From positions 783 through 64,782 of the forward strand of contig JAHJHG010000009.1 in assembly GCA_018823885.1 (NCBI GenBank): 64,000 bases of DNA, read 5' to 3'. The position numbers and the translations under genes were made by a program. Positions 6,278-27,550 of this stretch are shown here, piece after piece (within the stretch, counting starts at the first letter, position 1; each line of letters starts with the position of its first letter). This DNA is from Patescibacteria group bacterium. GTDB taxonomy: Bacteria; Patescibacteriota; Microgenomatia; UBA8517. Below the pieces are notes generated by a model, which was not told the origin of the DNA, made no database searches, and saw only the letters and a list, made by a program, of their open reading frames with translations.

Positions 6278-6988
6278 ATGAAAAAAATAACCATTACACT
6301 CGCCCTATTTTTGTTGATATTAATCTTTGTTCCAAAAAACATTTTTGCACAAGGAACATTTTCCTGCTACCAGCCAACGGCCAGCGTTCCCTGTGTTCCA
6401 GCAAATGTATATTGTGAAGAAGGGTATATCCCCGACACTAGTTATTGTAGTGCAAGGACAAACTCTAATTGCAACAATGTCCCTGCGACAACATGCATAG
6501 AAATACAGGGGCCAGAAACACAAACTGGCTGCTCTTCTGTCAGCACGGGCAGAACATATTGCACAACACAAGCTGCCCCTGGATATGGAGATATAGAAAT
6601 ATACTGTTCTACCAGTGATGAGTGTGAGAGCTATAAAGCAGAGCATCCATTAGAATCATCGGATAGTGAGTTTCCAACCTGTTTTACCGACGGCAAAAAA
6701 GGAATAAATACAGCTATCGGTTGTATCCCGATAGAAGACTCGAATTTGCTGATTGGTTTTATCTTAAAATGGGCCATTGGTGTTGGTGGAGGTATTGCTT
6801 TCCTATTAATCGTCCTTGCAGGTTTTCAAATAATGACCTCATCCGGCAACCCGGATAGATTAAAAGCAGGCCAAGAATTAATGACCTCGGCTATTGCAGG
6901 ATTAATACTTTTGATATTCTCTGTTTTTATATTAAAAATTATTGGAGTTGATATACTAGAATTACCAGGCTTTGGAGGAACACCATGA
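6278..6988 (+). CDS. T4SS pilin-like protein (VirB2/TrbC-type two-TM core) with about 120 aa Cys-rich N-terminal extracellular extension. First member of the paralog array.
   Basis: Signal peptide. At least 11 Cys in residues 30-130. C-terminal TM-SSGNPDRLKAGQEL-TM core shared with downstream paralogs. Stop overlaps the next start (ATGA). Confidence 0.6.
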   Translation: MKKITITLALFLLILIFVPKNIFAQGTFSCYQPTASVPCVPANVYCEEGYIPDTSYCSARTNSNCNNVPATTCIEIQGPETQTGCSSVSTGRTYCTTQAAPGYGDIEIYCSTSDECESYKAEHPLESSDSEFPTCFTDGKKGINTAIGCIPIEDSNLLIGFILKWAIGVGGGIAFLLIVLAGFQIMTSSGNPDRLKAGQELMTSAIAGLILLIFSVFILKIIGVDILELPGFGGTP

Positions 6989-7311
6989 AACTTGCACAAG
7001 ATTTAGAAGAAATTCAAAGTAAGGCATTACCTCAGTTTGAATTCTCGGGAGAACAAGGAGATATTGGAAATGTTGTCTCCAGTCTTATTAATTATCTTTT
7101 TCCATTGGCTGGAATCTTACTTCTTCTCTATCTTATCTATGGCGGATTTAGTCTAATGACCTCGGGTGGAGATCCAAAAGCGGTTCAAGGCGCAAAAAGT
7201 AAAATTACTAGTGCTCTAATTGGTTTCATAATCATTTTTGCGGCCTATTGGATAGTACAAATAGTTGCGTCAATTTTAGGAATCGAGGCAATAACAAATA
7301 TCTTCGGATAG
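6985..7311 (+). CDS. T4SS pilin-like small two-TM protein (paralog 2)
   Basis: Core LMTSGGDPKAVQGAKSKITSALIGFIIIFAAYWIVQ...GI. Confidence 0.65.
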   Translation: MKLAQDLEEIQSKALPQFEFSGEQGDIGNVVSSLINYLFPLAGILLLLYLIYGGFSLMTSGGDPKAVQGAKSKITSALIGFIIIFAAYWIVQIVASILGIEAITNIFG

Positions 7312-7349
7312 ATTTGCACCCTACCTCTTTTGCCTGCTAAACTTAAACC

Positions 7350-7670
7350 GTGAATAAATTAGCTGTTGAGATAGGAGAAAAGTTTTTTGGGGAAGGTTCC
7401 AATACACCATTAGCCGAAATCAGTGGGATTGGAACTCTTGTCTCCATTATCGTCAACGCCGCATTTGTTTTGGCAGGTATTATTTTGCTCTTCTTCTTTA
7501 TCTTCGGGGGAATTTCTATGATTGCAGGCGCCGGAAAAGATAATCCAGATCAAGCGGCAAAGGGAAAGCAGGCAATAACTTCTGCTCTTCTTGGTTTTAT
7601 TGTTGTTTTTGCCTCCTATTGGATAGTACAATTAATCGAACTTGTCACAGGAATCATTATTTTAGGATGA
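7350..7670 (+). CDS. T4SS pilin-like small two-TM protein (paralog 3, GTG start)
   Basis: Starts GTGAATAAATTAGC (MNKLA). Core AGKDNPDQAAKGKQAITSALLGFIVVFASYWIVQ. Confidence 0.6.
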   Translation: MNKLAVEIGEKFFGEGSNTPLAEISGIGTLVSIIVNAAFVLAGIILLFFFIFGGISMIAGAGKDNPDQAAKGKQAITSALLGFIVVFASYWIVQLIELVTGIIILG

Positions 7671-8023
7671 ATAAATTAGCAGAAAACAGTCCTTTTGGAT
7701 CCATAAATTTACCAGAAACTATAGAGAATAAATATCCCGGTGGAGTAGAAGGTGGGGCAATAGGAATCTTTCTAAACTGGACTATCAAGGCCCTTATTAT
7801 TGGTGCCGGGGTATATGCTCTCTTTAATCTTGTTCTTGCCGGATATGCTTTCATGTCTGCTGGAGATGATCCCAAAAAAATGGCTGGTGCCTGGGCAAAG
7901 ATATGGCAAACTCTTTTGGGGCTTGCTTTTGCCGCTGGCGCCTTCGTCTTAGCCGCTATATTTGGACAACTGATATTTGGAGATCCAACTTTTATACTTA
8001 ACCCAACAATACCGACACCATGA
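7667..8023 (+). CDS. T4SS pilin-like small two-TM protein (paralog 4)
   Basis: Starts ATGAATAAATTAGC (MNKLA), overlapping the previous stop (ATGA). Core SAGDDPKKMAGAWAKIWQTLLGLAF. Confidence 0.6.
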   Translation: MNKLAENSPFGSINLPETIENKYPGGVEGGAIGIFLNWTIKALIIGAGVYALFNLVLAGYAFMSAGDDPKKMAGAWAKIWQTLLGLAFAAGAFVLAAIFGQLIFGDPTFILNPTIPTP

Positions 8024-8385
8024 ATAAATTAGCTGATATAAACCTGGCGCCCGAGGGAGGATTTAAAGGATTTGGTGCCCTGGGGTTAGAAGAAGGACAG
8101 AGCGCTCCAGCAGTATTTACAAAATTCATCTCCAGCGTTATTGGACTAATGACAATTATCGCCATTATCTGGTTTGTTCTTCTGATGATAATGGGGGCCA
8201 TTGGCATTATTAGTTCGGGGGGAGACAAAGCGGCGTTGGAATCTGCTAAAAAACGAATTACAACCGGAATTCTTGGCTTCGTCGTCGTTATTGCCGCTAT
8301 TTTTATTGTCCAATTAATAGGAAAACTGATAGGAATACCGAATATATTAGATCTGCCTGTCTTGTTAGAAGGAATTCAACAATAG
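8020..8385 (+). CDS. T4SS pilin-like small two-TM protein (paralog 5)
   Basis: Starts ATGAATAAATTAGC (MNKLA), ATGA overlap. Core SSGGDKAALESAKKRITTGILGFVVVIAAIFIVQ. Confidence 0.65.
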   Translation: MNKLADINLAPEGGFKGFGALGLEEGQSAPAVFTKFISSVIGLMTIIAIIWFVLLMIMGAIGIISSGGDKAALESAKKRITTGILGFVVVIAAIFIVQLIGKLIGIPNILDLPVLLEGIQQ

Positions 8386-8726
8386 TGAATTATCTTGCTC
8401 AAGATTCAATAGAAAATCCCGTCTTAGGCCCCTCTTTGCAAACAAAAACCGGTGTTGGGTTTTTCCAAGATCTTTTACCCAGAATGGTCGGTCTGGCTTT
8501 CCTTGTAGGTGTGCTTATCTTTTTCTTTGTCATGATAATGGGGGCGATTCAATGGATCACTTCTGGAGGAGATAAAGCAGGGATCGAGTTAGCCAGAGGA
8601 AAAATAACAAATGCTATTGTCGGAGTGGTTATTCTTCTCTCCCTTTTTGCTCTACTTAAAGTCCTTGAGGACTTTTTTGGAATAAACATACTTGCCCTTG
8701 ACATAGGGCCGCTTATGATTCAATAA
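8385..8726 (+). CDS. T4SS pilin-like small two-TM protein (paralog 6, GTG start overlapping previous stop)
   Basis: Core TSGGDKAGIELARGKITNAIVGVVILLSLF...FGI. Confidence 0.6.
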   Translation: MNYLAQDSIENPVLGPSLQTKTGVGFFQDLLPRMVGLAFLVGVLIFFFVMIMGAIQWITSGGDKAGIELARGKITNAIVGVVILLSLFALLKVLEDFFGINILALDIGPLMIQ

Positions 8727-8736
8727 TATACGCAGA

Positions 8737-9087
8737 ATGCTTAACTTTTTGTATTCAACCGCCGTTCTCGCAGCCGACGACATAAATCTTAGCCCCACAG
8801 GGGAATTTTCGGCTCTTGGTGACTTAACAATTGGCGGAATTGTTTCAGCTTTTATCCGATTAATTCTAGTTGTTGCCGCCTTGGTATTTTTCTTCATTCT
8901 TGTTATCGGAGGAATCAGGTGGATTGCCTCAGGTGGAGATAAGGCTCAAACCGAAACAGCCAGAAATCAAATTACGGCCGCACTTGTTGGATTGGTTATC
9001 GTTTTTGCCGCTTGGGCCATTGTTCAACTAATAAATACCTTCTTCGGTATTGACATTTTCAGTCTTACCCTCCCAACGGCACAATAA
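8737..9087 (+). CDS. T4SS pilin-like small two-TM protein (paralog 7)
   Basis: Core ASGGDKAQTETARNQITAALVGLVIVFAAWAIVQ...FGI. Confidence 0.65.
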   Translation: MLNFLYSTAVLAADDINLSPTGEFSALGDLTIGGIVSAFIRLILVVAALVFFFILVIGGIRWIASGGDKAQTETARNQITAALVGLVIVFAAWAIVQLINTFFGIDIFSLTLPTAQ

Positions 9088-9156
9088 AACAGGCTTGCTC
9101 CAATTACTTCATTAAGTTAAACTTTAAGTCGAAAAGTATTGGTATCTTTTTGCATC

Positions 9157-9486
9157 ATGAATAAAATTATTAGTACTGTATTGGCTGCTGAAATTGAAAC
9201 AGTGGATGATGTTGCCACACTTCAAGGCTTTGAAGGAGTTTTTGAAAACATAGTAACCATCGTCCTAGGATTTGGAGGTATTATTCTTTTCATCATGCTT
9301 ATAATGGGAGGGTTTCGATTTATAACCGCTGGTGGAGACCCCAAGGCAATCGAAGGTGCAAAAAAAACCTTAACTTATGCTATCGGAGGCATTGTTCTTG
9401 TTGCTCTTTCATTTCTAATCCTCAGATTTATTTCCACCTTTACCGGAGTCGATGTCACTCAATTTAAAATATTTCAAGGAAATTAA
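9157..9486 (+). CDS. T4SS pilin-like small two-TM protein (paralog 8). Likely start at MNKIIS.
   Basis: Core TAGGDPKAIEGAKKTLTYAIGGIVLVALSFLIL...TGV. Confidence 0.6.
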   Translation: MNKIISTVLAAEIETVDDVATLQGFEGVFENIVTIVLGFGGIILFIMLIMGGFRFITAGGDPKAIEGAKKTLTYAIGGIVLVALSFLILRFISTFTGVDVTQFKIFQGN

Positions 9487-9499
9487 CTTCAAAACAAAA

Positions 9500-11869
9500 A
9501 TGCACAAGCTGCCCAAGAAGCCTGTTAATAAAGAATGTTTTTCCCTGATTCTATTGTTTATATTTTTCTTTCTTGCTCTTGGGTTCTTTGTATCGAAAGC
9601 AAAAGCCCAAATCCCAAATCCTCCGGTTCCCTGCGATGAAACACGAAATGATGAGTTTCATTCTTTGAGGCCCTATCAAGCCAGCCCCTGTGATGACAAA
9701 GCGGACACCGCTCTTTTTTGTGGAAATGATTTAATTGTTGCCGATACGATCACTGTTACTAAAAATCAAGCAACATCATGCGAATCTCTATCTAGTGGAA
9801 AGGAAAAGTGTAGTTTTACAACAAGTAACTCAAAAAATATTAGGATTGATTTATCAAGTGCCGATTTTCCTATTCTAGGTAATACCGAAAGTGTCGTAAA
9901 TATTGACAAAGATGCTGATGATTCTGGATTTGATGATGTAGGAAAAACAAATGAATACGTTAGCTGGTATCTAAACGGCACCATAAATCGCGCCGAGTAT
10001 GAGTTTCTAAACCCAAGCGAAAAACAAGACATCAGCAAGCTTATAGATTTTTCTGGCCCCATCAACAAACTTCTTCCATGGGAACAACAAGTAGCATACA
10101 GAATAAACACAATCAAACAAACTGGCGCAACGCGTCATGATCAAATAATTGCTTGTACTGTTGCGGGTGTTCCCGTTCCTTGCTATCACCAAGGACTACT
10201 CGAAATAATCGATACAAAACACCGACTTTCTGACTGGGAAGGGAAAATCACAAATTTACCAACACTGCCTGGTACTTGGAACGAAAGGGTACCTCCTCAA
10301 AGAAAAGATTTTGAAAATTTTCTAAACTACTGGGAAGCTTACAGGGAGTGGAGGGGCAATAGTTGTGGCCAATTTACAATTCCAATAATAAACAAACGTG
10401 TTCTTCTCTGCTCTCCTATTGACAATCCACTTAGGCCAAATTACTGGGCGGATCTATTTCCCTATGTTCCTTTTTCTTCAACGGAAGACCAGCTTGGGTT
10501 TGTTGAAACACAAACCTTGACCGCTTATTCTCCATCGGAAGATGTTACTTTAAAAGAAGTTTTATTTGATAATCAGGAACCAGCGGAACTCTTCTTTGCT
10601 CACACAGAAGAAGTTGCAGAGTTGGCTAGTATTTTGCAAAAAACGTTCGCTCCACAAGGTGCGGAAAACAATCTGTCATTTTCAGGTGTTTCTCCTACTG
10701 AATACTGTGATCTTGTAAATGTCCGTACAAACGAAGGGGATGATCTTTTTGCCGGAGAAATAGGTGGAGTACTTTCATACACCGCTGAATTTACGTGCGA
10801 ACTTGAACCAGGAGCAAGCAATGCTTGCGAAAGCGCAGGAGGAGAATGCATAAATACTCCCAGTTGTATCCGTGTCGGCAAAGGAACTGTGAATGGAGGC
10901 TCTGGGTGCAATACAGTAAACGAGACCTGCTGTGCACGAGAAGAGCCATTGTCTGGACAGGAGTGCACAAAAGAAATATACGCTAATTTGTCTGTTATAA
11001 CAAAAACCCCTAAGGTGAATGAAATTTGGGCAAGAACCGTAGCTGGACCATCATCAATTTTTAAAAGAATATTTCCCAAGATAGGAGAGGGTGGGGCTAT
11101 CTTGGGATTATTAGATATTCCCGGCGCAACAAACGTTACCTATTCAGGTGATGGCCTTGTCTACGCTGGCAATCCAGGAAACGAACGTTCTGGAGAATCT
11201 GCTGAACTATACTTCCCGCACGTTGGAGGGGTATCTGAATATTTCTTGAAAGGAATTCAAACTATTCTTCGACCAAAAGGCTTTGGGGAACAAATTCTTT
11301 CTGGTCAACCAGGAACAGAGTCGCCCGTACAAGAATGTAATCAAGATATTTCTAATTCGGCAATCCCCTCAAAATATCTGGGAGCATTCAAAGAAAACTT
11401 CATTCGCATGGCGAGAGATTGGAGTGAGAAGACTGAATGCCAGGGGCTTGAAAATACGATGGCGGATGAATGTTATAACGACGTTGTTAAGCGCTCTGTT
11501 GATAAAGGAGTAAATCCTGCCTTCACCTTAACCATCTGGCTTAATGAAACTGGTGCCAGTAATTATTGCGAGAGTGGGTCAACGGCTCAGGACTTTGGTA
11601 TTAGAATTCCATCTATCTTCCAAAACTTTGGAGAACAACTTGATCATTTTTTGGGTTTGCCTTTCAGTGGTACTTATGTCTCTTGCTCCAATGAAGCTGG
11701 TTGGGATAATAGAATACATGCTTTTCTCAGTAGATTTCGATCAGGCGGTTGTGATCCAACGGACAGTGAAGGAAATATCTATTACAACCACATTAAAGAA
11801 ACAACTTGGCCTTGGGTATCAAATTGTTCAAATCTCCCTAGTTGGCCAACAGACACGAGTTGTCCTTAA
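9500..11869 (+). CDS. Large secreted Cys-rich protein of unknown function (about 790 aa). Candidate pilus-associated adhesin or tip protein.
   Basis: Signal peptide MHKLPKKPVNKECFSLILLFIFFFLALGFFVSKAKAQ. More than 30 Cys including a dense cluster CESAGGECINTPSCIRVGKGTVNGGSGCNTVNETCCA. No TM after the signal peptide. Sits between the pilin array and the VirB6-like gene. Confidence 0.55.
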   Translation: MHKLPKKPVNKECFSLILLFIFFFLALGFFVSKAKAQIPNPPVPCDETRNDEFHSLRPYQASPCDDKADTALFCGNDLIVADTITVTKNQATSCESLSSGKEKCSFTTSNSKNIRIDLSSADFPILGNTESVVNIDKDADDSGFDDVGKTNEYVSWYLNGTINRAEYEFLNPSEKQDISKLIDFSGPINKLLPWEQQVAYRINTIKQTGATRHDQIIACTVAGVPVPCYHQGLLEIIDTKHRLSDWEGKITNLPTLPGTWNERVPPQRKDFENFLNYWEAYREWRGNSCGQFTIPIINKRVLLCSPIDNPLRPNYWADLFPYVPFSSTEDQLGFVETQTLTAYSPSEDVTLKEVLFDNQEPAELFFAHTEEVAELASILQKTFAPQGAENNLSFSGVSPTEYCDLVNVRTNEGDDLFAGEIGGVLSYTAEFTCELEPGASNACESAGGECINTPSCIRVGKGTVNGGSGCNTVNETCCAREEPLSGQECTKEIYANLSVITKTPKVNEIWARTVAGPSSIFKRIFPKIGEGGAILGLLDIPGATNVTYSGDGLVYAGNPGNERSGESAELYFPHVGGVSEYFLKGIQTILRPKGFGEQILSGQPGTESPVQECNQDISNSAIPSKYLGAFKENFIRMARDWSEKTECQGLENTMADECYNDVVKRSVDKGVNPAFTLTIWLNETGASNYCESGSTAQDFGIRIPSIFQNFGEQLDHFLGLPFSGTYVSCSNEAGWDNRIHAFLSRFRSGGCDPTDSEGNIYYNHIKETTWPWVSNCSNLPSWPTDTSCP

Positions 11870-11919
11870 ATGGTGTGTTGTTGACCCTACATTCGTATTG
11901 TATGATTAAAATAATAAGT

Positions 11920-13488
11920 ATGTTCAAGAAAGTTATTGTCTCGTTTATATTAGTCTTCTTGCTTTTTGCTGCATTAGTAACTCCCAATGCAAAAGCTCAG
12001 GGAGGAGGAAATTGGTATAATCAATCTTTTGAAGAGTGGTCTGCAAAGGTTTTTGATGACAGTAACCCTCAAGAAATATTTGGGGAAAGATATACCTATG
12101 CGCAGGTAACTTGGATCTTACACTCTCTACAGGCTTTTGCGTATGGAGACGATTTGATTAATTGTGTTAATGTTTCAAACGGAGATTTAAATGAAATTAA
12201 AGATTGTGTGAAAGGACTTCAAGAATCAAGTTCATTTATTAATAGCCCCGTATTGGCGATTGGTGCTTTTGGAGATTCTGTTCTTTCTCTTCATCCGGCG
12301 TCAGGTGTTGAATATGTCGCGGACACTGCTTCCAGGCTAAAAATAATTCCAAGTGCTTATGCGCAAGGAATTGGATTTGAAGGATTACAGCCGGCCCTAA
12401 AAGCGTGGAAGGTAACACGCAATATGACCTATGCTCTTTCTATTCTCGCCGTGATCGTTATGTCTTTTATGATTATGTTTAGGGTAAAAATTTCACCACA
12501 AGTAGTAATCACTGTTCAATCTGCACTCCCTAAAATTATTATTGCTTTAATACTTATCACTTTTTCTTATGCCATTGCTGGCTTTATTATTGATATTTCC
12601 TATCTTCTTCTGGGAATCATTGCTGCATTAGTTACATCCTCCGGGGTGGATATTTCTAGTTTGAACATGATACCGTTTTTCAACACATTCGTAATGGGTT
12701 CCGGCCTTTTTTGGTCTCTCATACTAACGCAGTTGTTATTTTTATTATTGTTCGGGATAACTGGAGCGCTAGTAGGAGCTCTTTTCGCCGTTCCCACTGG
12801 AGGATTGTCAATTGCCATTGGGGGTGGTATTGGAGCTATTCTTTTTCTCCTACTCATTGTTCTGATGATTTTTGCCAGCATAAAAATTCTCTGGCTTTTG
12901 GTAAAAACCACCATCAACATCCTTCTTCTTATTATCGCTGCTCCAATAATGATTTTAGCAGGAACGTTTTCGTCAGGAATAGGGTTTGGACCTTGGTTAA
13001 GACAACTTGTAGCCAATGTTGCCGTATTTCCAATGGTTCGAATCATGTTGTTCTTAGCCCATTATTTCTTTTGGGGAATGCGCATGACACAAGAGGTCGA
13101 TCTTGCCGGGTGGACTGCCGTCAATCCTTTGGGAATTCTTCCTTCTGGAGGAGAAATGGCTGTCCTGCCCGGCTATCTTCCTTTTAGCGTCGGAACCGGA
13201 CTTTTAGGTTGGATTCTCTCTTTCGGCGTGTTTTTCTTAACACCTAAGATCGGTGATATAATCAAGTCCATGATTGAAGGCAAACCATTCGCTTATGGAA
13301 CGGCTATCGGAGAGGCTGTTGGACCAATAGGCGCCGCTTGGGGATCAACCCCTGCACGTCTTGGCAAAGAAGCTGTTATTAGAGGGGGTGGTACAGAAAT
13401 TGCAAGCAGACTGAGAACAAAAGGGAAACTAGCAACTCAAATAGGAGACCAGCTTGACAATATTCTTAATTCAAAAAGGGGTTCTTAG
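11920..13488 (+). CDS. VirB6/TrbL-like polytopic membrane protein (T4SS inner-membrane channel component)
   Basis: Signal peptide, about 160 aa extracytoplasmic domain, then at least 6 TM helices and a Gly-rich C-terminal tail. Position and topology typical of VirB6/TcpH. Confidence 0.55.
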   Translation: MFKKVIVSFILVFLLFAALVTPNAKAQGGGNWYNQSFEEWSAKVFDDSNPQEIFGERYTYAQVTWILHSLQAFAYGDDLINCVNVSNGDLNEIKDCVKGLQESSSFINSPVLAIGAFGDSVLSLHPASGVEYVADTASRLKIIPSAYAQGIGFEGLQPALKAWKVTRNMTYALSILAVIVMSFMIMFRVKISPQVVITVQSALPKIIIALILITFSYAIAGFIIDISYLLLGIIAALVTSSGVDISSLNMIPFFNTFVMGSGLFWSLILTQLLFLLLFGITGALVGALFAVPTGGLSIAIGGGIGAILFLLLIVLMIFASIKILWLLVKTTINILLLIIAAPIMILAGTFSSGIGFGPWLRQLVANVAVFPMVRIMLFLAHYFFWGMRMTQEVDLAGWTAVNPLGILPSGGEMAVLPGYLPFSVGTGLLGWILSFGVFFLTPKIGDIIKSMIEGKPFAYGTAIGEAVGPIGAAWGSTPARLGKEAVIRGGGTEIASRLRTKGKLATQIGDQLDNILNSKRGS

Positions 13489-16742: not shown

Positions 16743-17786
16743 ATGGATCAACAACACCCTATACCGCAACAAATATCTTCCTACCAGTTTAAGTTGGTAG
16801 GAAATATGACTTTAAAGCAATTTTTCCAAATAGCGGGAGGAGCTCTGTTTTCTCTTCTTTTCTATGCATCAAATCTTCACCCCGTTATCAAATGGCCTCT
16901 TGTAATATTTTTTGCTCTTTTTGGAGCCGCTCTTGCTTTTCTTCCCTTTGAAGAAAGACCTCTTGAGCAATGGGTTATTTCATTTTTCAAAGCAGTCTAT
17001 ACTCCTACTACCTATTTTTGGGGGAAAACGACCAAGCCTCCTGTGTTTTTTAAAGAAGAAGCGTCTGTGCCCCAAGAGCATGTTGTTGCCCCACATGGAG
17101 AGAAAGAATTGGAAAAATACTTGCAGAGTCTTCCAGGGCGAGGCACTTCCGTATTTTCCAAACTCGAAGAGGCTGAAAATACTTTCCTTTCAAAACTTAC
17201 TAGGCTTTTCGGAAGTGGCGGAACAAGAGCGATTGAAACCCCCTCTTCAGCCGCTATGGCTCAACATACCCCGCAAGAGAAACAGCAAGAAATGACTGTG
17301 CCGCAAAACATACCAACTGTTATTCCGCAAGGATATAAGCCCAGGGTTGTGGTTGAAGAAAAAAAACCACTACTTCAAAATCAACAGCCAGCAGAAGCAA
17401 AAACTTCCACCGTTGCCAAGACGTTCACTGCTCAAGAAGTGATATCGGGACAAGCCGCCCAGTTCTCCGTCAATGCAGCTCCTCCACTTCCCCCTGAGAA
17501 GCCTAATACACTAACTGGTCAGGTTGTCGATGCTGGTGGCAAAATCATTGAAAGTGCAATACTCGAAATCAGAGATGTTGCCGGCCGACCTGTTAGAGCC
17601 GTCAAAACAAACAAAGTGGGGCACTTCATAATTGTTACCCCATTACAAGATGGGCGATACGAAATTATAAGCGAGAAGGAAGGGCTTAATTTTGAGCCAT
17701 TAACCTTTGAAGCAACCGGGAGCATTATTCCACCAATTGCGATAAGGTCTAAAAATAAAATTCCCACACCAATAATAATTAATTAA
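16743..17786 (+). CDS. Membrane protein with VirB3/PrgI-like N-terminal two-TM hairpin, Pro/Gln-rich linker and C-terminal carboxypeptidase-regulatory-like (Ig-like) domain
   Basis: N-terminus MTLKQFFQIAGGALFSLLFY...VIFFALFGAALAFLPFEERPLEQW. C-terminus GQVVDAGGKIIESAILEIRDVAGRPVRAVKTNKVGHFIIVTPLQDGRYEI. Directly upstream of the VirB4 ORFs. Confidence 0.45.
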   Translation: MDQQHPIPQQISSYQFKLVGNMTLKQFFQIAGGALFSLLFYASNLHPVIKWPLVIFFALFGAALAFLPFEERPLEQWVISFFKAVYTPTTYFWGKTTKPPVFFKEEASVPQEHVVAPHGEKELEKYLQSLPGRGTSVFSKLEEAENTFLSKLTRLFGSGGTRAIETPSSAAMAQHTPQEKQQEMTVPQNIPTVIPQGYKPRVVVEEKKPLLQNQQPAEAKTSTVAKTFTAQEVISGQAAQFSVNAAPPLPPEKPNTLTGQVVDAGGKIIESAILEIRDVAGRPVRAVKTNKVGHFIIVTPLQDGRYEIISEKEGLNFEPLTFEATGSIIPPIAIRSKNKIPTPIIIN

Positions 17787-17787
17787 T

Positions 17788-18447
17788 ATGAAAATTCCTT
17801 TTATTAGCATACCAGATAAGCCAATATCAGCAATTTCTCAAAAACATTTGCCGATTGCCGATATTGTTGATGACCTGGTTTTGTACAAAGATGGAGGTGC
17901 GGCAATTATCTTGGAAACTACCTCCCTTAACTTTGGTCTTTTGTCCGAAAAGGAGCAACAAGCTGTTATTGCCGCCTATGCTGCTCTTCTCAACTCTCTT
18001 TCTTTTGCTATCCAAATAGTTATTCGCTCTCAAAGAAAAGATATCTCGAGCTATATGAAATATCTTGATGAGGCTTCAAACAAAATTCAAAACCCAAAGC
18101 TTATTGAAATCATGACGGGTTACAAAAACTTTGTTTCTGAAACGATAAAGAAAAAAAATGTTCTGGGAAAAAGATTTTTTATTGTCATTCCGTTTAGCGC
18201 TTTAGAGCTTGGTGTAACGAAATCTGTTCTTTCGATTGCAAAAAAAGGCCCACTTCCATACCCCAAAACCTACGCAATTAAAAAAGCCAAAGTTTCTCTC
18301 TATCCAAAAAGAGACCATCTTATCAGACAAGCCGGGAGATTAAGTATAAAACTAAAACAACTCTCCACTGCGGAATTAATAGAGCTTTTCTATGACATTT
18401 ATAACCCAGAAATGCCAGCAGTTAAAAGCAAGGAGGACACCGTATAG
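17788..18447 (+). CDS. VirB4/TrbE N-terminal-domain-like protein (219 aa). Either a separately encoded N-domain or the 5' part of a split virB4.
   Basis: LPIADIVDDLVLYKDGGAAIILE..NFGLLSEKEQQAVIAAYAALLNSL..IQIVIRSQRKD aligns with the VirB4 N-terminal block (LPY.GHLSDHIVLLEDGS...FELEE.E.RN....NTLLRN...VSIYAHLVRH). Stop lies 1 nt before the ATG of the ATPase ORF. Confidence 0.45.
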   Translation: MKIPFISIPDKPISAISQKHLPIADIVDDLVLYKDGGAAIILETTSLNFGLLSEKEQQAVIAAYAALLNSLSFAIQIVIRSQRKDISSYMKYLDEASNKIQNPKLIEIMTGYKNFVSETIKKKNVLGKRFFIVIPFSALELGVTKSVLSIAKKGPLPYPKTYAIKKAKVSLYPKRDHLIRQAGRLSIKLKQLSTAELIELFYDIYNPEMPAVKSKEDTV

Positions 18448-18448
18448 T

Positions 18449-20410
18449 ATGGACGTACCAGGTTTTTTGAAAAAGAAACAGACAATCCAAGAGGACGCAG
18501 CACAAACAAGTGCCAGTGTGTCTTTACCTCAATCTCAAAATGTTGACAACACACCACCCCCCAATGGTGAGGTTGCTCAAAACAATACTCCAACAAAAAA
18601 ACCACCCATTCCTTCTCCCACCATTGCCTTTAGTCAAAAACAAATGCCCCTTATAGACATTCTTGCTCCTCAATCAATGGAAGTTGATTTTGGCTTTATT
18701 AAAATAAACAATGTCTATTTTAGAACTCTCTTCATCGCCGGATATCCAAGATTTGTTTCCCCTGGGTGGTTAGAACCAATCGTCAATTTTGATAATTCTT
18801 TAGATATTTCATTTAACATTTATCCTGTTGCCGGGAAAACAGTTCTCGACGATTTGAGACGAAAAATTGCCGAGATGGAGGCTGAAATAGCCACTGACCT
18901 CGAAAGGGGAAAAATCGTTGATCCTTCAACCCAAGCAAAACTAGAAGATGCAAGAACGTTGCAAGAACAATTGGTAAAAGGATCTGAGCGCTATTTTGAA
19001 TTTTCTCTCTATATAACCATCCCCGCTCCCTCTCTGGAAGAATTAAACCAAATTACCCGCCAAATCGAATCAACTCTTGGTTCTCTTTTGATCGTTGGCA
19101 AAAGAGCCACTCTTGATATGGAAAAAGGATTTCTTTCGTCAGCCCCTTTTGGAAGAGATGTCCTCTCAATTACAAGAAATATGGATACCACTTCTTTGGC
19201 AACCACTTTTCCGTTAACTTCTGCTGAATTATCCTCCGACAAAGGCGTACTTTATGGCATTAATTCACAAAATGATTCTTTCATTATCTTCGACAGATTT
19301 TCGCTGGAAAACAGCAACATGACTATCTTTGCTACCTCGGGTGCCGGAAAAAGTTATTTTGTTAAATTAGAAGCCTTAAGATCTTTAATGCTCGGAACGG
19401 AGGTTATTGTCATCGACCCTGAAAGCGAATACGAAGCATTGGCTGGTGCAGTTGGTGGACAATTTGTCTCTTTTTCATTTAACTCTCCGTCTAAAATTAA
19501 TCCTTTTGACCTAACTCAAATCTACGAAGAGGGAGAAAATCAGCTAGGATTAAAAATCCTAACTCTTCATTCTCTTTTTAAGGTCATCATGGGGCAATTG
19601 AATGCTACCCAAGAAGCCCTTCTTGATCGAGCCTTGGTGGCAACATACAGAGCAAAAGGAATAACTCAAGACCCAGCAACCCAAAAAAGAGAACCTCCTT
19701 TAATGGAAGATCTTTACAAAATTTTAATGGGTATGGAGACCGCGGAAGCAAAAGACTTGGCAGCAAGAATTGAAAAGTTTGTAAAAGGAAGTTTTGTCGG
19801 CATGTTTGATCAGCAAACAAGCGTCGAGATAAAAAACCCTTTTGTTGTTTTCTCTGTTAAAGATCTGCAAGAAGCACTCAGACCAATTGCCATGTTTATC
19901 ATCTTGGATTTCATTTGGACAAGAGTAAGAAGAGATATTAAAAGAAGGTTGCTGATCGTCGATGAGGCTTGGCACATGATGCGATATGAAGACTCTGCTC
20001 AATTCCTCTGGAGCGTTGTTAAAAGAGCAAGGAAATACTTTCTAGGATTGACCACTATAACGCAAGATGTAGAAGATTTCTTGAGTCAAGACATCGGTAA
20101 AGCTATCGTTACAAACTCGGCTCTTAGGCTTCTCCTTAAGCAGTCTCCTGCGGCAATAGACAAGATCGGCGAAGTCTTTTATTTATCTCAGGGAGAAAAA
20201 CAACTCTTAATGGGGGCGAACATTGGGGAAGGAATCTTTTTTGCTGGACCCCACCATGCACCAATAAGTGTCGTCGCATCCAAAGAAGAACATAAATTGA
20301 TCGATTCAAGGCCTCAGGAAAAGACATTCAATGAAAATGTTGATTCAAGACCTTTTGCAACAACAGAACAAGTTACTCAAAGGAATCAATATGACAGAAA
20401 CCCTCAATAA
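18449..20410 (+). CDS. virB4: T4SS ATPase VirB4/TrbE/CagE family
   Basis: Walker A FATSGAGKSYF. Walker B RLLIVDEAWHMM. RBS AAGGAGGA about 12 nt upstream of ATG 18449. N-terminal Pro/Thr/Gln-rich low-complexity stretch, then a GYPRFVSPGWLEP block. Confidence 0.8.
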   Translation: MDVPGFLKKKQTIQEDAAQTSASVSLPQSQNVDNTPPPNGEVAQNNTPTKKPPIPSPTIAFSQKQMPLIDILAPQSMEVDFGFIKINNVYFRTLFIAGYPRFVSPGWLEPIVNFDNSLDISFNIYPVAGKTVLDDLRRKIAEMEAEIATDLERGKIVDPSTQAKLEDARTLQEQLVKGSERYFEFSLYITIPAPSLEELNQITRQIESTLGSLLIVGKRATLDMEKGFLSSAPFGRDVLSITRNMDTTSLATTFPLTSAELSSDKGVLYGINSQNDSFIIFDRFSLENSNMTIFATSGAGKSYFVKLEALRSLMLGTEVIVIDPESEYEALAGAVGGQFVSFSFNSPSKINPFDLTQIYEEGENQLGLKILTLHSLFKVIMGQLNATQEALLDRALVATYRAKGITQDPATQKREPPLMEDLYKILMGMETAEAKDLAARIEKFVKGSFVGMFDQQTSVEIKNPFVVFSVKDLQEALRPIAMFIILDFIWTRVRRDIKRRLLIVDEAWHMMRYEDSAQFLWSVVKRARKYFLGLTTITQDVEDFLSQDIGKAIVTNSALRLLLKQSPAAIDKIGEVFYLSQGEKQLLMGANIGEGIFFAGPHHAPISVVASKEEHKLIDSRPQEKTFNENVDSRPFATTEQVTQRNQYDRNPQ

Positions 20411-23035: not shown

Positions 23036-24151
23036 CTAGCTTTGAATCTTCACAGGCATTATTAAATGAAGGTAATCGGGATCTTTAGGGTCTCTGAAAA
23101 TTCCTGGTGCGTTTGTAGCTGAAAGTTCAATTTGTATTTCATCCTCCTTCACTACCCCTAAGAAGTCCTCTAAGAATCTATAGTTAAACGCTATCTTAAA
23201 ACCTTTTTTGTCTATTGATCCTACCACTTTAGCATCAACCTTCGTTTCCTGTGAACCTGAAGATTGACTTTCTGCGGAAAGTTCAACTGTGTCTTTCCTA
23301 ACAGTGAAATTAATAACATTTGCGGAATCTCGGGCAAAAACGGAAGCCAACTTAACGGCTCGAAGTAATTCTTCTTTATCTAAACTTATTTTTATCTTTG
23401 AATCTTTAGGAATAATCCTCTCAAAATCAGGGAATTCCCCTTCTAATATTCTTGAGGCGAGAATCGTTCCTCCTAGTCCAAAAACAACTTGATTGTCTGA
23501 TTTTCTTAAAGAGAAACCTATTTTCTCTTCTTCAGAGGAAAGTCTTGATAGTTCACTGAGCGCCGTTTTTGGTAATATGACGCTCTGTTTCTTTTGTATT
23601 GTCTTCATTGAAATCTCCTTTTGAGACAATCTAAAACCATCTGTGGCTACTAATATCAATTTCCCTTTTTTATATATGAATAATATTCCTGTTAAAATCG
23701 GCCGTGTTTCATCCACTGAGGCTGCAAAAGAAACTTGAGATAAAGCAGTTAAGAAGCTTTCTCTTTCTAAAATAATCGACTCCTTCCCGACTGATTGAGG
23801 TATTGTGGGAAAATCAGCCGCATTCATTCCAGAAACACTAGATTCAAAATTCTGTGCAGATATTTTTACTTGTTCATTAATAGATGACAAATTAATAGAG
23901 CCAGAAGGTAGATTAGATACAATATCGGTAATCACTCGTGCCGGTACTGTTATTTCTCCTTCTTTGTCTATTTGAGCCCCAACCGATATTGAAACTGACG
24001 TTTCAAGATTTGTTGCAGATACTAAAAGTTTTGCTTTTTTACCAGAAATAAGAATATTACCTAAAACCGGAAGTTGCGCTCTTGCGCTTGTAAATCTGGA
24101 TGCGGTAACGAGAGCTTTAGAAAGATTTTCTTGTAAAACCTGTAATTTCAT
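23036..24151 (-). CDS. dnaN: DNA polymerase III beta subunit (sliding clamp)
   Basis: Full-length DnaN similarity (MKLQVLQENLSKAL...LPVLGNILI...). Located downstream of dnaA. Confidence 0.9.
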   Translation of the reverse strand: MKLQVLQENLSKALVTASRFTSARAQLPVLGNILISGKKAKLLVSATNLETSVSISVGAQIDKEGEITVPARVITDIVSNLPSGSINLSSINEQVKISAQNFESSVSGMNAADFPTIPQSVGKESIILERESFLTALSQVSFAASVDETRPILTGILFIYKKGKLILVATDGFRLSQKEISMKTIQKKQSVILPKTALSELSRLSSEEEKIGFSLRKSDNQVVFGLGGTILASRILEGEFPDFERIIPKDSKIKISLDKEELLRAVKLASVFARDSANVINFTVRKDTVELSAESQSSGSQETKVDAKVVGSIDKKGFKIAFNYRFLEDFLGVVKEDEIQIELSATNAPGIFRDPKDPDYLHLIMPVKIQS

Positions 24152-24416
24152 TTTGTTTATCTTTCTTTCGCATTATATGAACAATAAATAATAAAGGCAA
24201 GATGTTTCCAAAATGTATTTTATTAGTTTTTATTATATGCTGTTCTTTCTTTATATAAATTAGTAGTAATAGTAGTAGGGTTTGTTGATAAGTGGAAAAG
24301 TACGCCTACGTAGGCTGGTGATTGATTGTTTATATTAAACATAGTTAATTGTGGATATAAATGTGGATAAAATTACGATTATTGTTGATAAGTGGAGAAA
24401 CTTGATGGGTTTATCC
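24152..24416. promoter_or_regulatory. Candidate oriC: DnaA-box cluster plus AT-rich unwinding element in the dnaA-dnaN spacer
   Basis: Consensus DnaA box TGTGGATAA at 24362-24370. One-mismatch boxes TGTGGATAT (24350-24358) and TTATCCTCA (about 24408). Exact 15-mer TTGTTGATAAGTGGA duplicated at 24282-24296 and 24383-24397. AT-rich stretch with (TAG)n-like repeats at 24217-24278. Confidence 0.55.
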
Positions 24417-25853
24417 TCAAAGACTATTTTTTATCCCCAGGATATCCTGACGAGTTTGCACATCCCTACTGGCTAAATGAGTTATCTTTTCCACAGCATG
24501 CATGACAGTTGTGTGATCTCTTCCACCGACAAGCCTTCCAACTTCCTGTAGTGGCAAATTAAGCTGGGTTCTTAATAAATACATCAGAATTTGTCTTGGT
24601 AAGGAAACAGGCCTTGCTCGTGAAGTACCAAGGAGAGCTCTTTTACCAAGAGAAAAGTATCGAGAAACAGCTGTAATAACCTCATTGGGAGTTGCTTTTA
24701 TTTTTTTATCGTTTGATTCAATGCCTTTCCCCAAAAGAGATTGAATTAACTCTTCTGTTATCTCGGTATTTTTTAGTTTTGCTTCAGAAGAAAGTCTAAT
24801 TAGAAAACCTTCCATTTTTCTTGCAGAGTTTATGTTTCCGGCAATAAGTTGGACAAGGTCCATAGGAATTTCGATTCCCCTCTCCTTTGTTTTGATTTGA
24901 ACAATAGCGCATCTAAGTTCAAAGTCAGGCGGAGAAATATCTACAATTAAACCCGCTTCAAACCGACTTCGTAATCGTTCTTCCAACTTCGAGATTTCAT
25001 GCGGGGGCCGATCAGAAGCCAAGATTACTTGTCCTCCTTCTGCAACGAGGGCATTGAATGTGTGGAAAAATTCTTCTTGAACAGCATCTTTTCCAGCGAT
25101 AAATTGGATATCATCAATGATTAAAGTTTTTAGTTTTCTGTACTTATTTCTGAAGTCCACTGTTGTCTTTTTTCTGATTCCCTCGACTATTTCGTTCGTA
25201 AATTCTTCTCCAGTGCAAAAAAGAATTTTGTCATCGACTCGTTCTCCTATTAGGTAGTGACCGACAGCGTTCATTAAATGAGTTTTTCCAACCCCCACTC
25301 CACCCCAAAGAAAGAGAGGGTTATATGAAGTACCTGGATTTTTGGAAACGGCTTCTGCTGCGGCCCAAGCCATTTGGTTGGAAGAGGACACGGCATAGTT
25401 TTCAAAGGTAAATCCCGGTCGAATTCTTGCTTTTGATAGACTAACCCCGATTTCTTCTTGGAGCCTTTCTTCCTGTTCGAAAAGCGGCGCCGGCGCATTT
25501 GTTTTGGTGACCCCTTCTTTCTTTGGATGCTCTTTTACAATAAATATCAAATCGCACTCGGTATCAAGGATCTTTTTTAAAGAATCTTGTATCAGACCAA
25601 AATAGCGCCCTTCGATTGTCGACTTAACAAAACTGGAAGAGCATCCAATTTTGGCAATATATCTCCCCTCTTTTTTACTAAGATTTGAGAGATGAGTTTG
25701 TGAGAACCACGTTGAAAATATCGCCGGTGAGACAGACACCTTTATACTTTCCATGGAATCATTCCATATTTGATTTTTATTAATACTAGACACAGTGATT
25801 AGATTTACGGGACAGTCGGACAGGAGCAAATGCATAGTAGTGAAGTTATCCAC
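24417..25853 (-). CDS. dnaA: Chromosomal replication initiator DnaA (start may be the internal Met at 25754)
   Basis: AAA+ Walker A GGVGVGKTHL. C-terminal DnaA DNA-binding signature (HTTVMHAVEKI). Confidence 0.9.
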   Translation of the reverse strand: MDNFTTMHLLLSDCPVNLITVSSINKNQIWNDSMESIKVSVSPAIFSTWFSQTHLSNLSKKEGRYIAKIGCSSSFVKSTIEGRYFGLIQDSLKKILDTECDLIFIVKEHPKKEGVTKTNAPAPLFEQEERLQEEIGVSLSKARIRPGFTFENYAVSSSNQMAWAAAEAVSKNPGTSYNPLFLWGGVGVGKTHLMNAVGHYLIGERVDDKILFCTGEEFTNEIVEGIRKKTTVDFRNKYRKLKTLIIDDIQFIAGKDAVQEEFFHTFNALVAEGGQVILASDRPPHEISKLEERLRSRFEAGLIVDISPPDFELRCAIVQIKTKERGIEIPMDLVQLIAGNINSARKMEGFLIRLSSEAKLKNTEITEELIQSLLGKGIESNDKKIKATPNEVITAVSRYFSLGKRALLGTSRARPVSLPRQILMYLLRTQLNLPLQEVGRLVGGRDHTTVMHAVEKITHLASRDVQTRQDILGIKNSL

Positions 25854-25978
25854 AATTCGTCAACCCCCAAAAAGACCGAAAATTGAAAACTTTGTCCCAC
25901 TCGAGTGCTTTTTGTTGTTGTGGTTCTTTTCTTGCACTTGTCGTAAAATATTAGTAGACTAAACCTTGTTTTAGAGTT

Positions 25979-26116
25979 ATGCCAAAAAGAACATACAGTC
26001 CAAGCAAGAAAAAAAGAGCACGTAAGTTCGGCTTTCGAGTCAGAATGAAGACGAAAGACGGACGAAAGGTTATTTCTAGCAGGAGAAAAAAGGGTAGAAA
26101 GAAACTTTCTTCTTAA
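25979..26116 (+). CDS. rpmH: 50S ribosomal protein L34 (45 aa, too short for the ORF track)
   Basis: Translates to [45 protein letters not shown]. Canonical rpmH-rnpA linkage. Confidence 0.85.
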
Positions 26117-26126
26117 ACGTTATCCA

Positions 26127-26471
26127 ATGCTTGCAAAAAAACACAGACTAACAGGAAGAAGTATCTTGGAAGAAGTAAAGAAAAAAGGATCTCTTTACCA
26201 AGCTGATTCTTTCGGGATATTAGTAAGCAAAAGAACAGACGACGAACCTTCGAGGTTCGCTTTTATAGTTTCAACCAAAATATCAAAGACAGCAGTAGAT
26301 AGAAATAAAGCAAAACGCAAGTTGAGAGAAGCTGTTAATCAGAAGATAGGCAAAGTGGCAAATGGGCATGATGTCGTTTTTCTAGCAAAGAAAATGACTC
26401 TTGAGAGAAAAAGTGAAGATTTAACAAGAGAAGTCGAAAAAGTATTTAAAGAATCAGGTTTAATAAAATGA
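26127..26471 (+). CDS. rnpA: RNase P protein component
   Basis: Basic about 114 aa protein with RnpA-like K/R-rich core, following rpmH. Confidence 0.8.
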   Translation: MLAKKHRLTGRSILEEVKKKGSLYQADSFGILVSKRTDDEPSRFAFIVSTKISKTAVDRNKAKRKLREAVNQKIGKVANGHDVVFLAKKMTLERKSEDLTREVEKVFKESGLIK

Positions 26472-26698
26472 AAAAATTACAAAATACATTGTTTAATATT
26501 TATAAGAATATATTTTCAAAGCCGTTAAAGTTTCTTTTTGGAGGAGGATGTAGATATTACCCTACATGCTCTGATTATTCTCGAAAAGCATTAGCAGAAT
26601 ATGGTTTATATAGAGGAACTTGGGTTTCAATAAAGAGATTATTTCGCTGTCATCCTTTTTCAAAAACGGGATTTTATGATCCTCTTCTAAGCAAATAA
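26468..26698 (+). CDS. yidD: Membrane protein insertion efficiency factor YidD
   Basis: YYPTCSDYSRKALAEYGLYRG...CHPFSKTGFYDPL motif. Confidence 0.8.
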   Translation: MKKLQNTLFNIYKNIFSKPLKFLFGGGCRYYPTCSDYSRKALAEYGLYRGTWVSIKRLFRCHPFSKTGFYDPLLSK

Positions 26699-26701
26699 AT
26701 A

Positions 26702-27550
26702 ATGAATATTTTTACCACAGCTTTAATTCAACCACTTGCAAACGGCTTAATCGTTGCTTACCGAATACTTGGGGAAAACATGGGGTTGGCAATTCTAGGC
26801 TTCGGCCTTTTCTTGAGGGTAGTACTAAATCCTCTTACAAAGCCATATATGGAATCAATGAAGAAAATGAAAGATTTTGCTCCTCAGTTGGAGAAGCTTA
26901 AGAAAAAACATGGCGGAGATAAAATAAAATTGGCTCAAGCGCAATCAGAGTTTTACAAACAAAAGGGGATTAATCCTGGAGCAGGATGCTTGCCTTATCT
27001 ATTACAGATAGTTGTCTTAATAGCTTTCTTTAATGTATTTTCTCGTGTTTTAACCCCGAATGGTGATATAGTTGCCCGGTTTAATGAGCTTCTCTATGAG
27101 CCCTTGAAATTTGGTGCACAGGAAATTATAAATACAAGATTTTTATACCTTGATGTAACAAAACCTGATGTTATAAATCTTGCTTCTTTGCCAATCCCGC
27201 TACCGGGACCAGTTCTATTGCTTGCCGCCCTTGTTCAGTTTATCTCTGCGAAGATAATGGCTCCTTATGTTAAAGCGGAAGAGAAGGCTGCGAAGAAGAC
27301 AAAAGAAAAGTCAGACGATATCCAAGTAGCAATGCAGCAATCAATGATATACACCTTTCCCCTGATGACCATCGTGATCGGAATGCGTTTTGCTTCCGGT
27401 CTGGCTCTGTATTGGTTCCTTTTTTCAGTTTACCAAGCAATCCAACAATATAATTCACAGGGGTGGGGAGGTTTGACTCCTTGGATTGAGAAAATAGGTC
27501 TGTTACAATCGGATGCTAGGAGTAATAAAAATGGCCGTAAAAAAAACTAA
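26702..27550 (+). CDS. yidC: Membrane protein insertase YidC (short Oxa1-like form)
   Basis: Multi-TM protein with GAGCLPYLLQIVVLIAFF motif, in the rnpA-yidD-yidC-jag order. Confidence 0.8.
   Translation: MNIFTTALIQPLANGLIVAYRILGENMGLAILGFGLFLRVVLNPLTKPYMESMKKMKDFAPQLEKLKKKHGGDKIKLAQAQSEFYKQKGINPGAGCLPYLLQIVVLIAFFNVFSRVLTPNGDIVARFNELLYEPLKFGAQEIINTRFLYLDVTKPDVINLASLPIPLPGPVLLLAALVQFISAKIMAPYVKAEEKAAKKTKEKSDDIQVAMQQSMIYTFPLMTIVIGMRFASGLALYWFLFSVYQAIQQYNSQGWGGLTPWIEKIGLLQSDARSNKNGRKKN

Follow-up and report, generated by a model that had tools for sequence, protein, structure and literature searches.

What does a row of eight divergent pilin genes specify: a store of variants to be exchanged, a choice of alternative subunits, or the parts of one structure? 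The question is raised by the 64-kb stretch of Patescibacterial DNA analysed here (contig JAHJHG010000009.1; hereafter the window), in which eight back-to-back open reading frames (ORFs) of one pilin family, named p1 to p8, lie on the plus strand at 6278–9486. From family identity and genomic context together, we consider it close to certain that they encode VirB2/TrbC-superfamily pilins of an origin-proximal chromosomal type IV secretion system (T4SS). The fuller explanation, in which these T4SS pilins form an ordered set that serves a heteromeric assembly with roles for its subunits, is probable; the part of it that concerns heteromeric assembly and subunit roles, taken separately, we regard as an even call.

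Family membership and predicted fold

ORF calls and an alignment bore out the original prediction, made from the sequence by itself, that eight tandem ORFs share a common core. The genes, all on the plus strand, are p1 (6278–6988, 236 aa), p2 (6985–7311, 108 aa), p3 (7350–7670, 106 aa, GTG start), p4 (7667–8023, 118 aa), p5 (8020–8385, 121 aa), p6 (8385–8726, 113 aa, GTG start), p7 (8737–9087, 116 aa) and p8 (9157–9486, 109 aa). Mechanical ORF calls begin further upstream for p4 (TTG at 7619) and p8 (TTG at 9139); the ATG starts given here for these two genes agree with their paralogs and orthologs. In the alignment the core consists of a hydrophobic helix, an S/A-G-G-D-(P)-K loop and a second hydrophobic helix followed by G-I/V (in p4, AGYAFMSAGDDPKK), and the identity between paralogs over this core is 21–49%.

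Scores above the cut-off of 26.6 bits for PF18895 (T4SS_pilin) were obtained for p1 (29.4), p2 (39.4), p3 (39.3), p7 (36.3) and p8 (40.2), with p5 (24.2) and p6 (23.9) falling just under it. p4 had no match in the Pfam or NCBIfam libraries; the profile of its orthologs matched that of the p2/p6/p7/p8 orthologs (hhalign 97.6%, E 4e-12), and positional orthologs of p4 are present in nearly all arrays. Since seven of the eight proteins match PF18895 and p4 is tied to them by the profile-profile comparison, eight consecutive members of the same family cannot have arisen by chance. The family is very large, with 76,608 cluster representatives matching a profile of the window paralogs at E≤1e-3; p5 has 356 homologues at E≤1e-10, and PF18895 was matched by 92 of 93 family relatives. 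In addition, p2 matches NCBIfam NF045849 (43 bits, cut-off 40), the Mbov_0395 pilin-like conjugal transfer family, and the p1 and p8 proteins carry the NCBI name 'pilin'. Matches to PF04956 (TrbC/VirB2) remained sub-threshold (22.4 bits for p8 and 21.4 for p2, gathering cut-off 27.9), and even weak ones were found in only 3 of the 93 relatives.

The AlphaFold2 (AF2) model of p7 (predicted local distance difference test, pLDDT, 80) has helices at residues 32–64 and 69–103 with the SGGD loop between them; that of p1 (pLDDT 77) has a small beta-rich domain at 27–78 and helices at 155–187 and 192–221. The predicted hairpin in both is made of two long helices joined by a four-residue SGGD-type loop. 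Two long hydrophobic helices, as expected of PF18895 members, are present in these two models and in the hydropathy of all eight proteins. The array is co-encoded with core T4SS genes, virB4 sitting 9 kb downstream, and six relatives share this neighbourhood. The original prediction rightly called them pilin paralogs; more precisely, they belong to the VirB2/TrbC-like pilins of T4SS and are not type IV pilins.

Gene order, selection and N-termini

We compared 31 species-level loci, obtained with p2 as query, and several closer contigs, assigning each pilin ORF to its best window paralog (locus numbers are preceded by L). The order p1–p8 recurs in L001, L004, L006, L007, L011 and L018 and is kept, with extra copies, in L003, L013 and L017. 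This conserved order spans Woesebacteria, Blackburnbacteria and other Microgenomatia loci, down to 40–60% identity, and the cognate paralog outscores the second best 1.5–4 times. Extra copies are seen only through local duplication (p1 triplicated in L003, p4–p5 doubled in L013, p7 doubled in several loci). The modal array size in the 26 untruncated loci is 8, and pilin gene number ranges from 6 to 11 only in comparisons across orders. Comparing copy number between related strains, proposed in the original prediction as a check for variation, gave eight genes and the same context in all six close relatives (L032, L034, L036, L039, L040 and L042) as in the window, with no strain-type variability.

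The dN/dS ratios that had also been proposed as a check were 0.015–0.26 for every paralog against three close relatives, and purifying selection was found on all genes over their whole length. p7 is the best-conserved paralog, with 96–98% amino acid identity to relatives and the lowest dN/dS of the array (0.015–0.03); p6 orthologs are 83–89% identical, and p3 begins with GTG in each of the seven genomes compared. Independent samples yielded the same haplotypes (L032/L033, L034/L035 and L036/L037/L038). These comparisons show an ordered, ancient set in which purifying selection maintains every member and each can be paired with an ortholog of its own throughout the class.

The predicted overlaps of stop and start codons were read in the sequence at all four junctions, as ATGA at 6985–6988 (p1/p2), 7667–7670 (p3/p4) and 8020–8023 (p4/p5) and as TAGTG at 8383–8387 (p5/p6). 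Since the upstream proteins p1 and p4 both end in T-P, ACACCATGAA is common to the p1/p2 and p4/p5 junctions (window 6980–6990 and 8015–8028); a similar string, CATCATGAATAAA, precedes p8 (window 9153–9165). The p4/p5 overlap is absent from the other haplotype of this region (see below). The best promoter-like site in the array, TTGACA-18-AATAAT at 8698–8727, lies just upstream of p7, but promoter-like sites overall were not above chance (10 vs 9.8 expected); with 7 terminator-like sites vs 4.1 expected, the scan gives no more than a hint at the sites that precede p1 and p7. An Rfam scan of the window detected only a tmRNA and one tRNA, none of them inside the array.

p1 consists of a Sec signal peptide (residues 1–25, ending in NIFA and followed by QG), a Cys-rich hypervariable ectodomain and the hairpin core, with hydrophobic segments at 1–28, 157–190 and 198–232 and an invariant motif, GI(N/D)TAIGCIP. 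In an alignment of 74 p1 members the length of the ectodomain varies between 0 and about 170 aa, with a nearly invariant hairpin core; in L036, p1 has 128 aa, the ectodomain being largely deleted. Judging from this pattern, p1 is a candidate adhesin or tip subunit.

Among the eight, only p1 has an N-terminal hydrophobic segment. No hydrophobic N-terminus was found in any of 232 short homologues, in which the first membrane helix begins at median residue 28. The N-termini are MKLAQ in p2, (M)NKLAV in p3, MNKLAE in p4, MNKLAD in p5, (M)NYLAQ in p6 and MNKIISTVLAAE in p8, and 45% of the pilins, vs 0.6% of control ORFs from the same loci, start with M-x(1-5)-hydrophobic-[AS]-Q. Orthologs of p7 in Shapirobacteria, Paceibacterota and Curtissbacteria have full signal peptides of 25–30 residues, the last residues of which (VLAA before DD, AFAQ before AN) align with the window sequences MLNFLYSTAVLAA-DD (p7), MNYLAQ-D (p6) and MKLAQ-D (p2). 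Because the ends of these full-length signal peptides align with the window N-termini, the MNKLA/MKLAQ start is a vestigial Sec signal peptide that retains the n- and c-regions but no longer has the hydrophobic core. The divergent N-terminal regions of the original prediction were found in that the tails differ strongly between paralogs, but those of p2–p8 are short and acidic and are not preceded by a classical signal peptide. In the 232 homologues the N-tail has a net charge of -0.7 and the loop of +1.3; by the positive-inside rule, such acidic tails and basic loops would place both ends outside and the loop inside. The tails may be inserted without a signal peptide, e.g. through YidC, and the graded loss of the signal-peptide core leads to a testable prediction on how these pilins enter the membrane.

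At the nucleotide level, the window contains exactly three copies of RTGAATAAATTAGC, located at 7350, 7667 and 8020, which are the starts of p3, p4 and p5, and the variant ATGAATAAAAT is located at 9157, the start of p8; three genes with a common 5' string and a fourth with a variant had indeed been predicted. A function of RTGAATAAATTAGC as DNA was considered and rejected, as orthologs encode the same peptide with synonymous codons (AAC, CTA, TTG and CTT) at its positions; because of these codons, there is no conserved DNA element at the 5' ends. The suggestion that the string is a signature of exchange is not upheld: the conservation is that of the peptide, as a vestige of the signal peptide.

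Recombination, fusions and the proposed assembly

A divergent haplotype block at 7318–8400 on the plus strand, opened by p3, comprises p3–p5 and the first codons of p6. Nucleotide identity between the window and L036 is 81–91% in the flanks and 58–78% within about 7318–8400, recovering after it, and the proportion of synonymous differences (pS) is 0.74 (saturated) in the block vs 0.44 in p1+p2 and 0.50 in p6–p8. The window is nearest to L036 for SpoIID (89%), p1 (85%), p2, p7 and p8 (89%). Its p3, p4 and p5 are 60–64% identical to those of L036, L032 and L034, which are mutually 81–91% identical in these three genes, and 72–83% identical to those of L039, L040 and L042. This split of p3–p5 into window, L039, L040 and L042 vs L032, L034 and L036 conflicts with the grouping by SpoIID and p1; L032 clusters with L040 for SpoIID and with L036 for p3–p5. 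This incongruence of p3–p5 with the flanks indicates either that the block was replaced by that of another lineage or that two ancient haplotypes have persisted.

On its left the block ends at the p2/p3 junction (window 7312–7349), a structural hot spot that is interrupted by 0.9–9 kb of other genes in five loci (L008, L011, L018, L022 and L040); both haplotypes conserve the 38-nt spacer that precedes the p3 GTG. The secreted and membrane proteins encoded downstream of the array are mosaic too, each with its own pattern between lineages.

Rearranged pilin genes were also found. In L043, a Woesebacteria contig, a ninth gene (919–1275, P0069) between p6 and p7 is a chimera of a p7 N-terminal half and a p6 C-terminal half, with the junction at SGGDKA. 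Its identity to the parents is about 95%, and the differences in the N-terminal half are all synonymous. Since it has diverged from its parents by about 5%, the chimera is an old and fixed duplication product of unequal crossing-over, not a case of ongoing switching. An assembly artefact was rejected in view of this divergence and of the synonymous differences, and an assembly loop because p6 and p7 have at most 14 identical bases in common there. An in-frame p2–p3 fusion (208 aa, P0001) is encoded at 6001–6627 of L046, in an otherwise normal array with the same SmpB/SpoIID context, and such fusions occur in three separate protein clusters (P0001–P0003).

Beyond these, we observed single ORFs with 2–17 tandem PF18895 hairpin modules behind one signal peptide, here called poly-pilins (P0359–P0390). 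Examples have 552 aa and 6 modules, 1147 aa and 11 modules, and 1775 aa and 17 modules (L044, 1777–3435; L045, 8001–13328). One poly-pilin lies inside a pilin array; that with 17 modules is on an archaeal-looking contig and adjoins a ribosomal L39e gene, and one poly-pilin cluster has a Ca. Altiarchaeales member. ORFs of two Candidatus Woesearchaeota (DPANN) loci, L028 and L029, match the pilin profile at E 1e-11 to 1e-12, and in a Ca. Uhrbacteria locus (L024, 9842–11722 and 11520–20207) the pilin module lies within very large ORFs (626 aa and at least 2896 aa). No mention of poly-pilins was found in the available portions of the cited literature on Patescibacterial T4SS.

We propose the following model. 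The paralogs would be co-expressed, partly by translational coupling via the ATGA/TAGTG overlaps, and their hairpins would enter the membrane with the loop on the cytoplasmic side and both termini exposed outside the cell. A VirB4-driven machine would then build from them a single heteromeric filament or conduit in contact with the host cell, in which p7 would supply the bulk or core, p1 would face the host through its hypervariable Cys-rich ectodomain, and p2–p6 and p8 would be minor or adaptor subunits. Diversity would come from divergence of the outward-facing N-tails, from lineage block replacement (p3–p5) and from rare unequal crossing-over or fusion of neighbours; programmed cassette exchange would not be a source of it, nor MNKLA a recombination handle.

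The original prediction had offered recombinational shuffling or a heteropolymeric pilus as readings of the array, and the second is the better fit to the conserved order and 1:1 orthology, the dN/dS values, the constant eight copies, the fusions and transposon sequencing (Tn-seq). In S. epibionticum, Wang et al. (2023) found a series of predicted pilins to be essential, all six (SEML1_0014–0019) scoring GD/ES/ES (growth defect or essential) in Tn-seq (PMC10633639, Table S1). Order and orthology, selection, Tn-seq and fusions, taken together, favour a defined heteromer over a pool of alternatives, and fused neighbours and proteins of 2–17 modules give Rosetta-stone support for side-by-side assembly. 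Conserved order, 1:1 orthology, a nearly invariant p7, a variable p1 and tolerated fusions likewise argue for a defined multi-subunit structure, in which p7 as the bulk subunit and p1 and p3–p5 as specificity determinants are indicated as the subunits of priority.

Several points weigh against this model. All comparisons were made on metagenome-assembled contigs, and the Tn-seq data (PMC10633639) are from a different class (Saccharimonadia), where polar effects within the operon may contribute. No filament from a Patescibacterial T4SS has yet been observed (PMC12857230), and monoderm T4SS of this class are normally without pili (PMC10633639, PMC12857230). Sequence and fold searches against solved pilus structures gave no significant match and were uninformative, and a profile search of the PDB sequences returned only chance matches, e.g. 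SecY and designed proteins. The roles of p1 and p7 are suggested by conservation patterns, and co-expression, stoichiometry and contacts between paralogs are predictions from the genes.

A bolder form of the model makes the paralogs obligate position-specific subunits of one heteromeric T4SS filament in a monoderm bacterium, with gene order mirroring assembly, p3–p5 as a swappable host-specificity cassette that passes between lineages and M-x-L-A-Q as a still functional ultra-short leader or tag. We think this doubtful. A gene order that mirrors the order of assembly would fit the fused neighbours and the poly-pilins, and the M-x-L-A-Q start would, if the proposal were true, represent a novel class of export signals for pilins, serving insertion or processing without Sec.

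The paralogs could instead be interchangeable alternative major pilins, each able to form a filament alone and used according to host or condition. This idea was raised in PMC12102498; strong differences between the outward-facing N-tails, the two deep p3–p5 haplotypes and the hypervariable p1 ectodomain, as for surfaces in contact with a host, are in keeping with it. Anaplasma virB2 paralogs are differentially expressed (PMC3556328), and a similar use is proposed, in the available portions of the sources, for these and for the Bartonella trwL copies. We nevertheless consider it unlikely, since 1:1 positional orthology persists between species down to 40–60% identity, copy number is constant in close relatives vs 8–15 among Anaplasma strains, every copy is under purifying selection, and all six S. 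epibionticum pilins are GD or essential under one growth condition; moreover, the start/stop overlaps imply co-translation and not choice, and in-frame fusions of neighbouring paralogs are tolerated. A further alternative, that the hairpins form a fixed membrane or cell-wall-spanning stack or ring of the secretion channel and not an extracellular pilus, agrees with the pilus-free state of monoderm T4SS mentioned above and with the fixed order and stoichiometry, and the 6–17 hairpin modules fused in one polypeptide suit a static bundle better than a subunit-wise polymer. It appears rather improbable, as the family is homologous to VirB2/TrbC pilins (through the sub-threshold PF04956 matches) and the hypervariable p1 ectodomain suggests exposure to the outside. 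In the VirB2-type pilus, as known from F and T pilus structures, both termini are at the outer surface, so that linked modules could still polymerise.

A device for programmed recombinational or antigenic variation, with the conserved 5' ends and core as crossover points, is very improbable, although some observations speak for it. Three genes share the 14-nt 5' string, and the probability that their N, K and L codons are identical is about 0.006 under bulk codon usage; the identical 5' runs are nominally unusual (permutation p 0.004–0.018), and the natural p7/p6 chimera of L043 has its junction at the conserved SGGDKA. However, these 13–14-nt runs are not significant after correction for 28 pairs, orthologs use other codons, and a repeat search and permutation test for gene conversion between paralogs detected nothing but these runs. 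The 5' identity between paralogs spans only 13–19 bases, and micro-conversion of ≤19 nt at the 5' ends is not needed for the data. Over their length the paralogs have 40–58% nucleotide identity, with a longest identical run of 17 nt; all eight are complete ORFs with start codons, none being silent or truncated, and no recombinase or invertase in or beside the array was found among the family-library matches of the local proteins. Copy number and order are stable, purifying selection extends along whole genes, and the L043 chimera is about 5% diverged and represents an old fixed duplication. Programmed shuffling is thus not supported, and recombination stands on the evolutionary scale, in the p3–p5 block and the L043 chimera.

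Genomic context and comparison with known systems

The gene order in the six close relatives is SpoIID-like (minus strand), p1–p8, a secreted protein (about 800 aa), a membrane protein (some 540 aa), PrgI, TraC-like and VirB4. In the window, p8 is directly followed on the plus strand by a gene for a secreted Cys-rich protein of about 790 aa (9500–11869) with no Pfam or NCBIfam match; genes of 720–820 aa occupy this slot in L032, L034, L036, L039, L040 and L042, their products being only 54–66% identical to that of the window and grouping differently from the neighbouring genes. The next plus-strand gene (11842–13488) encodes a polytopic membrane protein of 548 aa without family match, the position of which is kept in the relatives; it may be a divergent VirB6-like channel subunit. 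VirB6 is scarce in Microgenomatia (PMC12102498). Further downstream, also on the plus strand, are genes for a PrgI/VirB3-like protein (16743–17786; PF12666, 28.8 bits, cut-off 27), a 219-aa protein (17788–18447) with no Pfam match in the window copy and a weak TraC-like match (PF26593) in its orthologs in L032, L034 and L039, and a VirB4-type ATPase (18392–20410; PF19044 TraG P-loop, E 9.5e-30; PF03135 CagE_TrbE_VirB, E 1.4e-5). As dnaN, dnaA, rnpA and yidC are located at 23036–27550, about 3 kb past the secretion genes, the locus lies at the replication origin, a placement of the T4SS locus reported for many Patescibacteria (PMC12102498). At the left end of the window, a ComFC-like gene (phosphoribosyltransferase and double zinc ribbon) is found at 11–760 on the minus strand, and a tmRNA gene (Rfam RF00023, 160 bits) directly adjoins smpB (727–1099 and 1104–1529, both on the minus strand). 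In the databases the contig belongs to a metagenome-assembled 'Patescibacteria group bacterium' (locus tags from KKH23_03000 onward), and its close relatives bear the names Woesebacteria, Microgenomates or 'Microgenomatia_JAHJHG01', in keeping with a Woesebacteria-like member of the Microgenomatia.

Systems with several pilin genes are known elsewhere. In Neisseria, one expressed copy, pilE, is accompanied by silent or truncated pilS donors; the window array differs from this type of variation in that all copies are complete, with dN/dS below 0.27, and there are no long shared nucleotide tracts. Type II secretion systems and type IV pili have operons of major and minor (pseudo)pilins, and these offer an analogy, not a homology: distinct, co-transcribed and required subunits in conserved order, one abundant and several priming or capping, but with an unrelated fold, a different leader and peptidase (PilD-type) and a different assembly ATPase. 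VirB2 of the Ti plasmid, TrbC of RP4 and TraA of F resemble the window pilins as small two-helix proteins with a short basic loop that are encoded together with VirB3 and VirB4 homologues. These systems have a single pilin gene and a long cleaved leader, whereas in the window an N-terminal hydrophobic segment of the kind expected for classical pilins is found in p1 only and PF04956 scores reach just 21–22 bits vs 27.9.

Closer in arrangement are the tandem trwL (VirB2) copies of the Bartonella Trw system, described in the available portions of PMC2883598 and PMC2610397, and the 8–15 virB2 paralogs of Anaplasma phagocytophilum, which vary in number between strains (PMC3556328). As far as the available portions of these sources go, both have many tandem VirB2-like genes in or beside a T4SS locus, with a conserved hairpin and variable exposed ends, and both are proposed to diversify a surface structure in contact with the host. 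The bearers are diderm alphaproteobacterial animal pathogens, unlike the monoderm episymbiont-type bacterium considered here; their pilins still have a signal peptide of about 27 aa, whereas those of the window mostly lack the signal-peptide core, and their copy number varies between strains, whereas number and order in the window array are stable, with no amplification of the Anaplasma/Bartonella type.

The window array is a real feature and a member of an already published class, the Patescibacterial VirB2-like arrays, of which 441 with 2–11 pilin genes have been described in 383 assemblies, most abundantly in Microgenomatia and Saccharimonadia (Quinonero-Coronel et al. 2025, PMC12102498). 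Identity within those arrays has a mean of 25% and a maximum of 54%, and the secretion system is often near dnaA (PMC12102498). Like them, the eight adjacent genes are chromosomal, tandem and VirB2-like (PF18895 with weak PF04956), have low mutual identity and lie near virB4/prgI and dnaA; the window differs in nothing of kind, and the S. epibionticum array has six genes. In the one Patescibacterium that is genetically tractable, life on the host requires both the T4SS and its array of pilins (PMC10633639), and the product of such arrays was posed as an open problem in a 2025 review (PMC12857230), a picture which the locus leaves unchanged and the comparisons sharpen. Set against the available text of PMC12102498, PMC10633639 and PMC12857230, the observations that go beyond the published descriptions are i) the fixed order with 1:1 orthology, ii) the nearly invariant p7, iii) the loss of the signal-peptide core in p2–p8, iv) the p3–p5 block and v) the chimeras and fusions.

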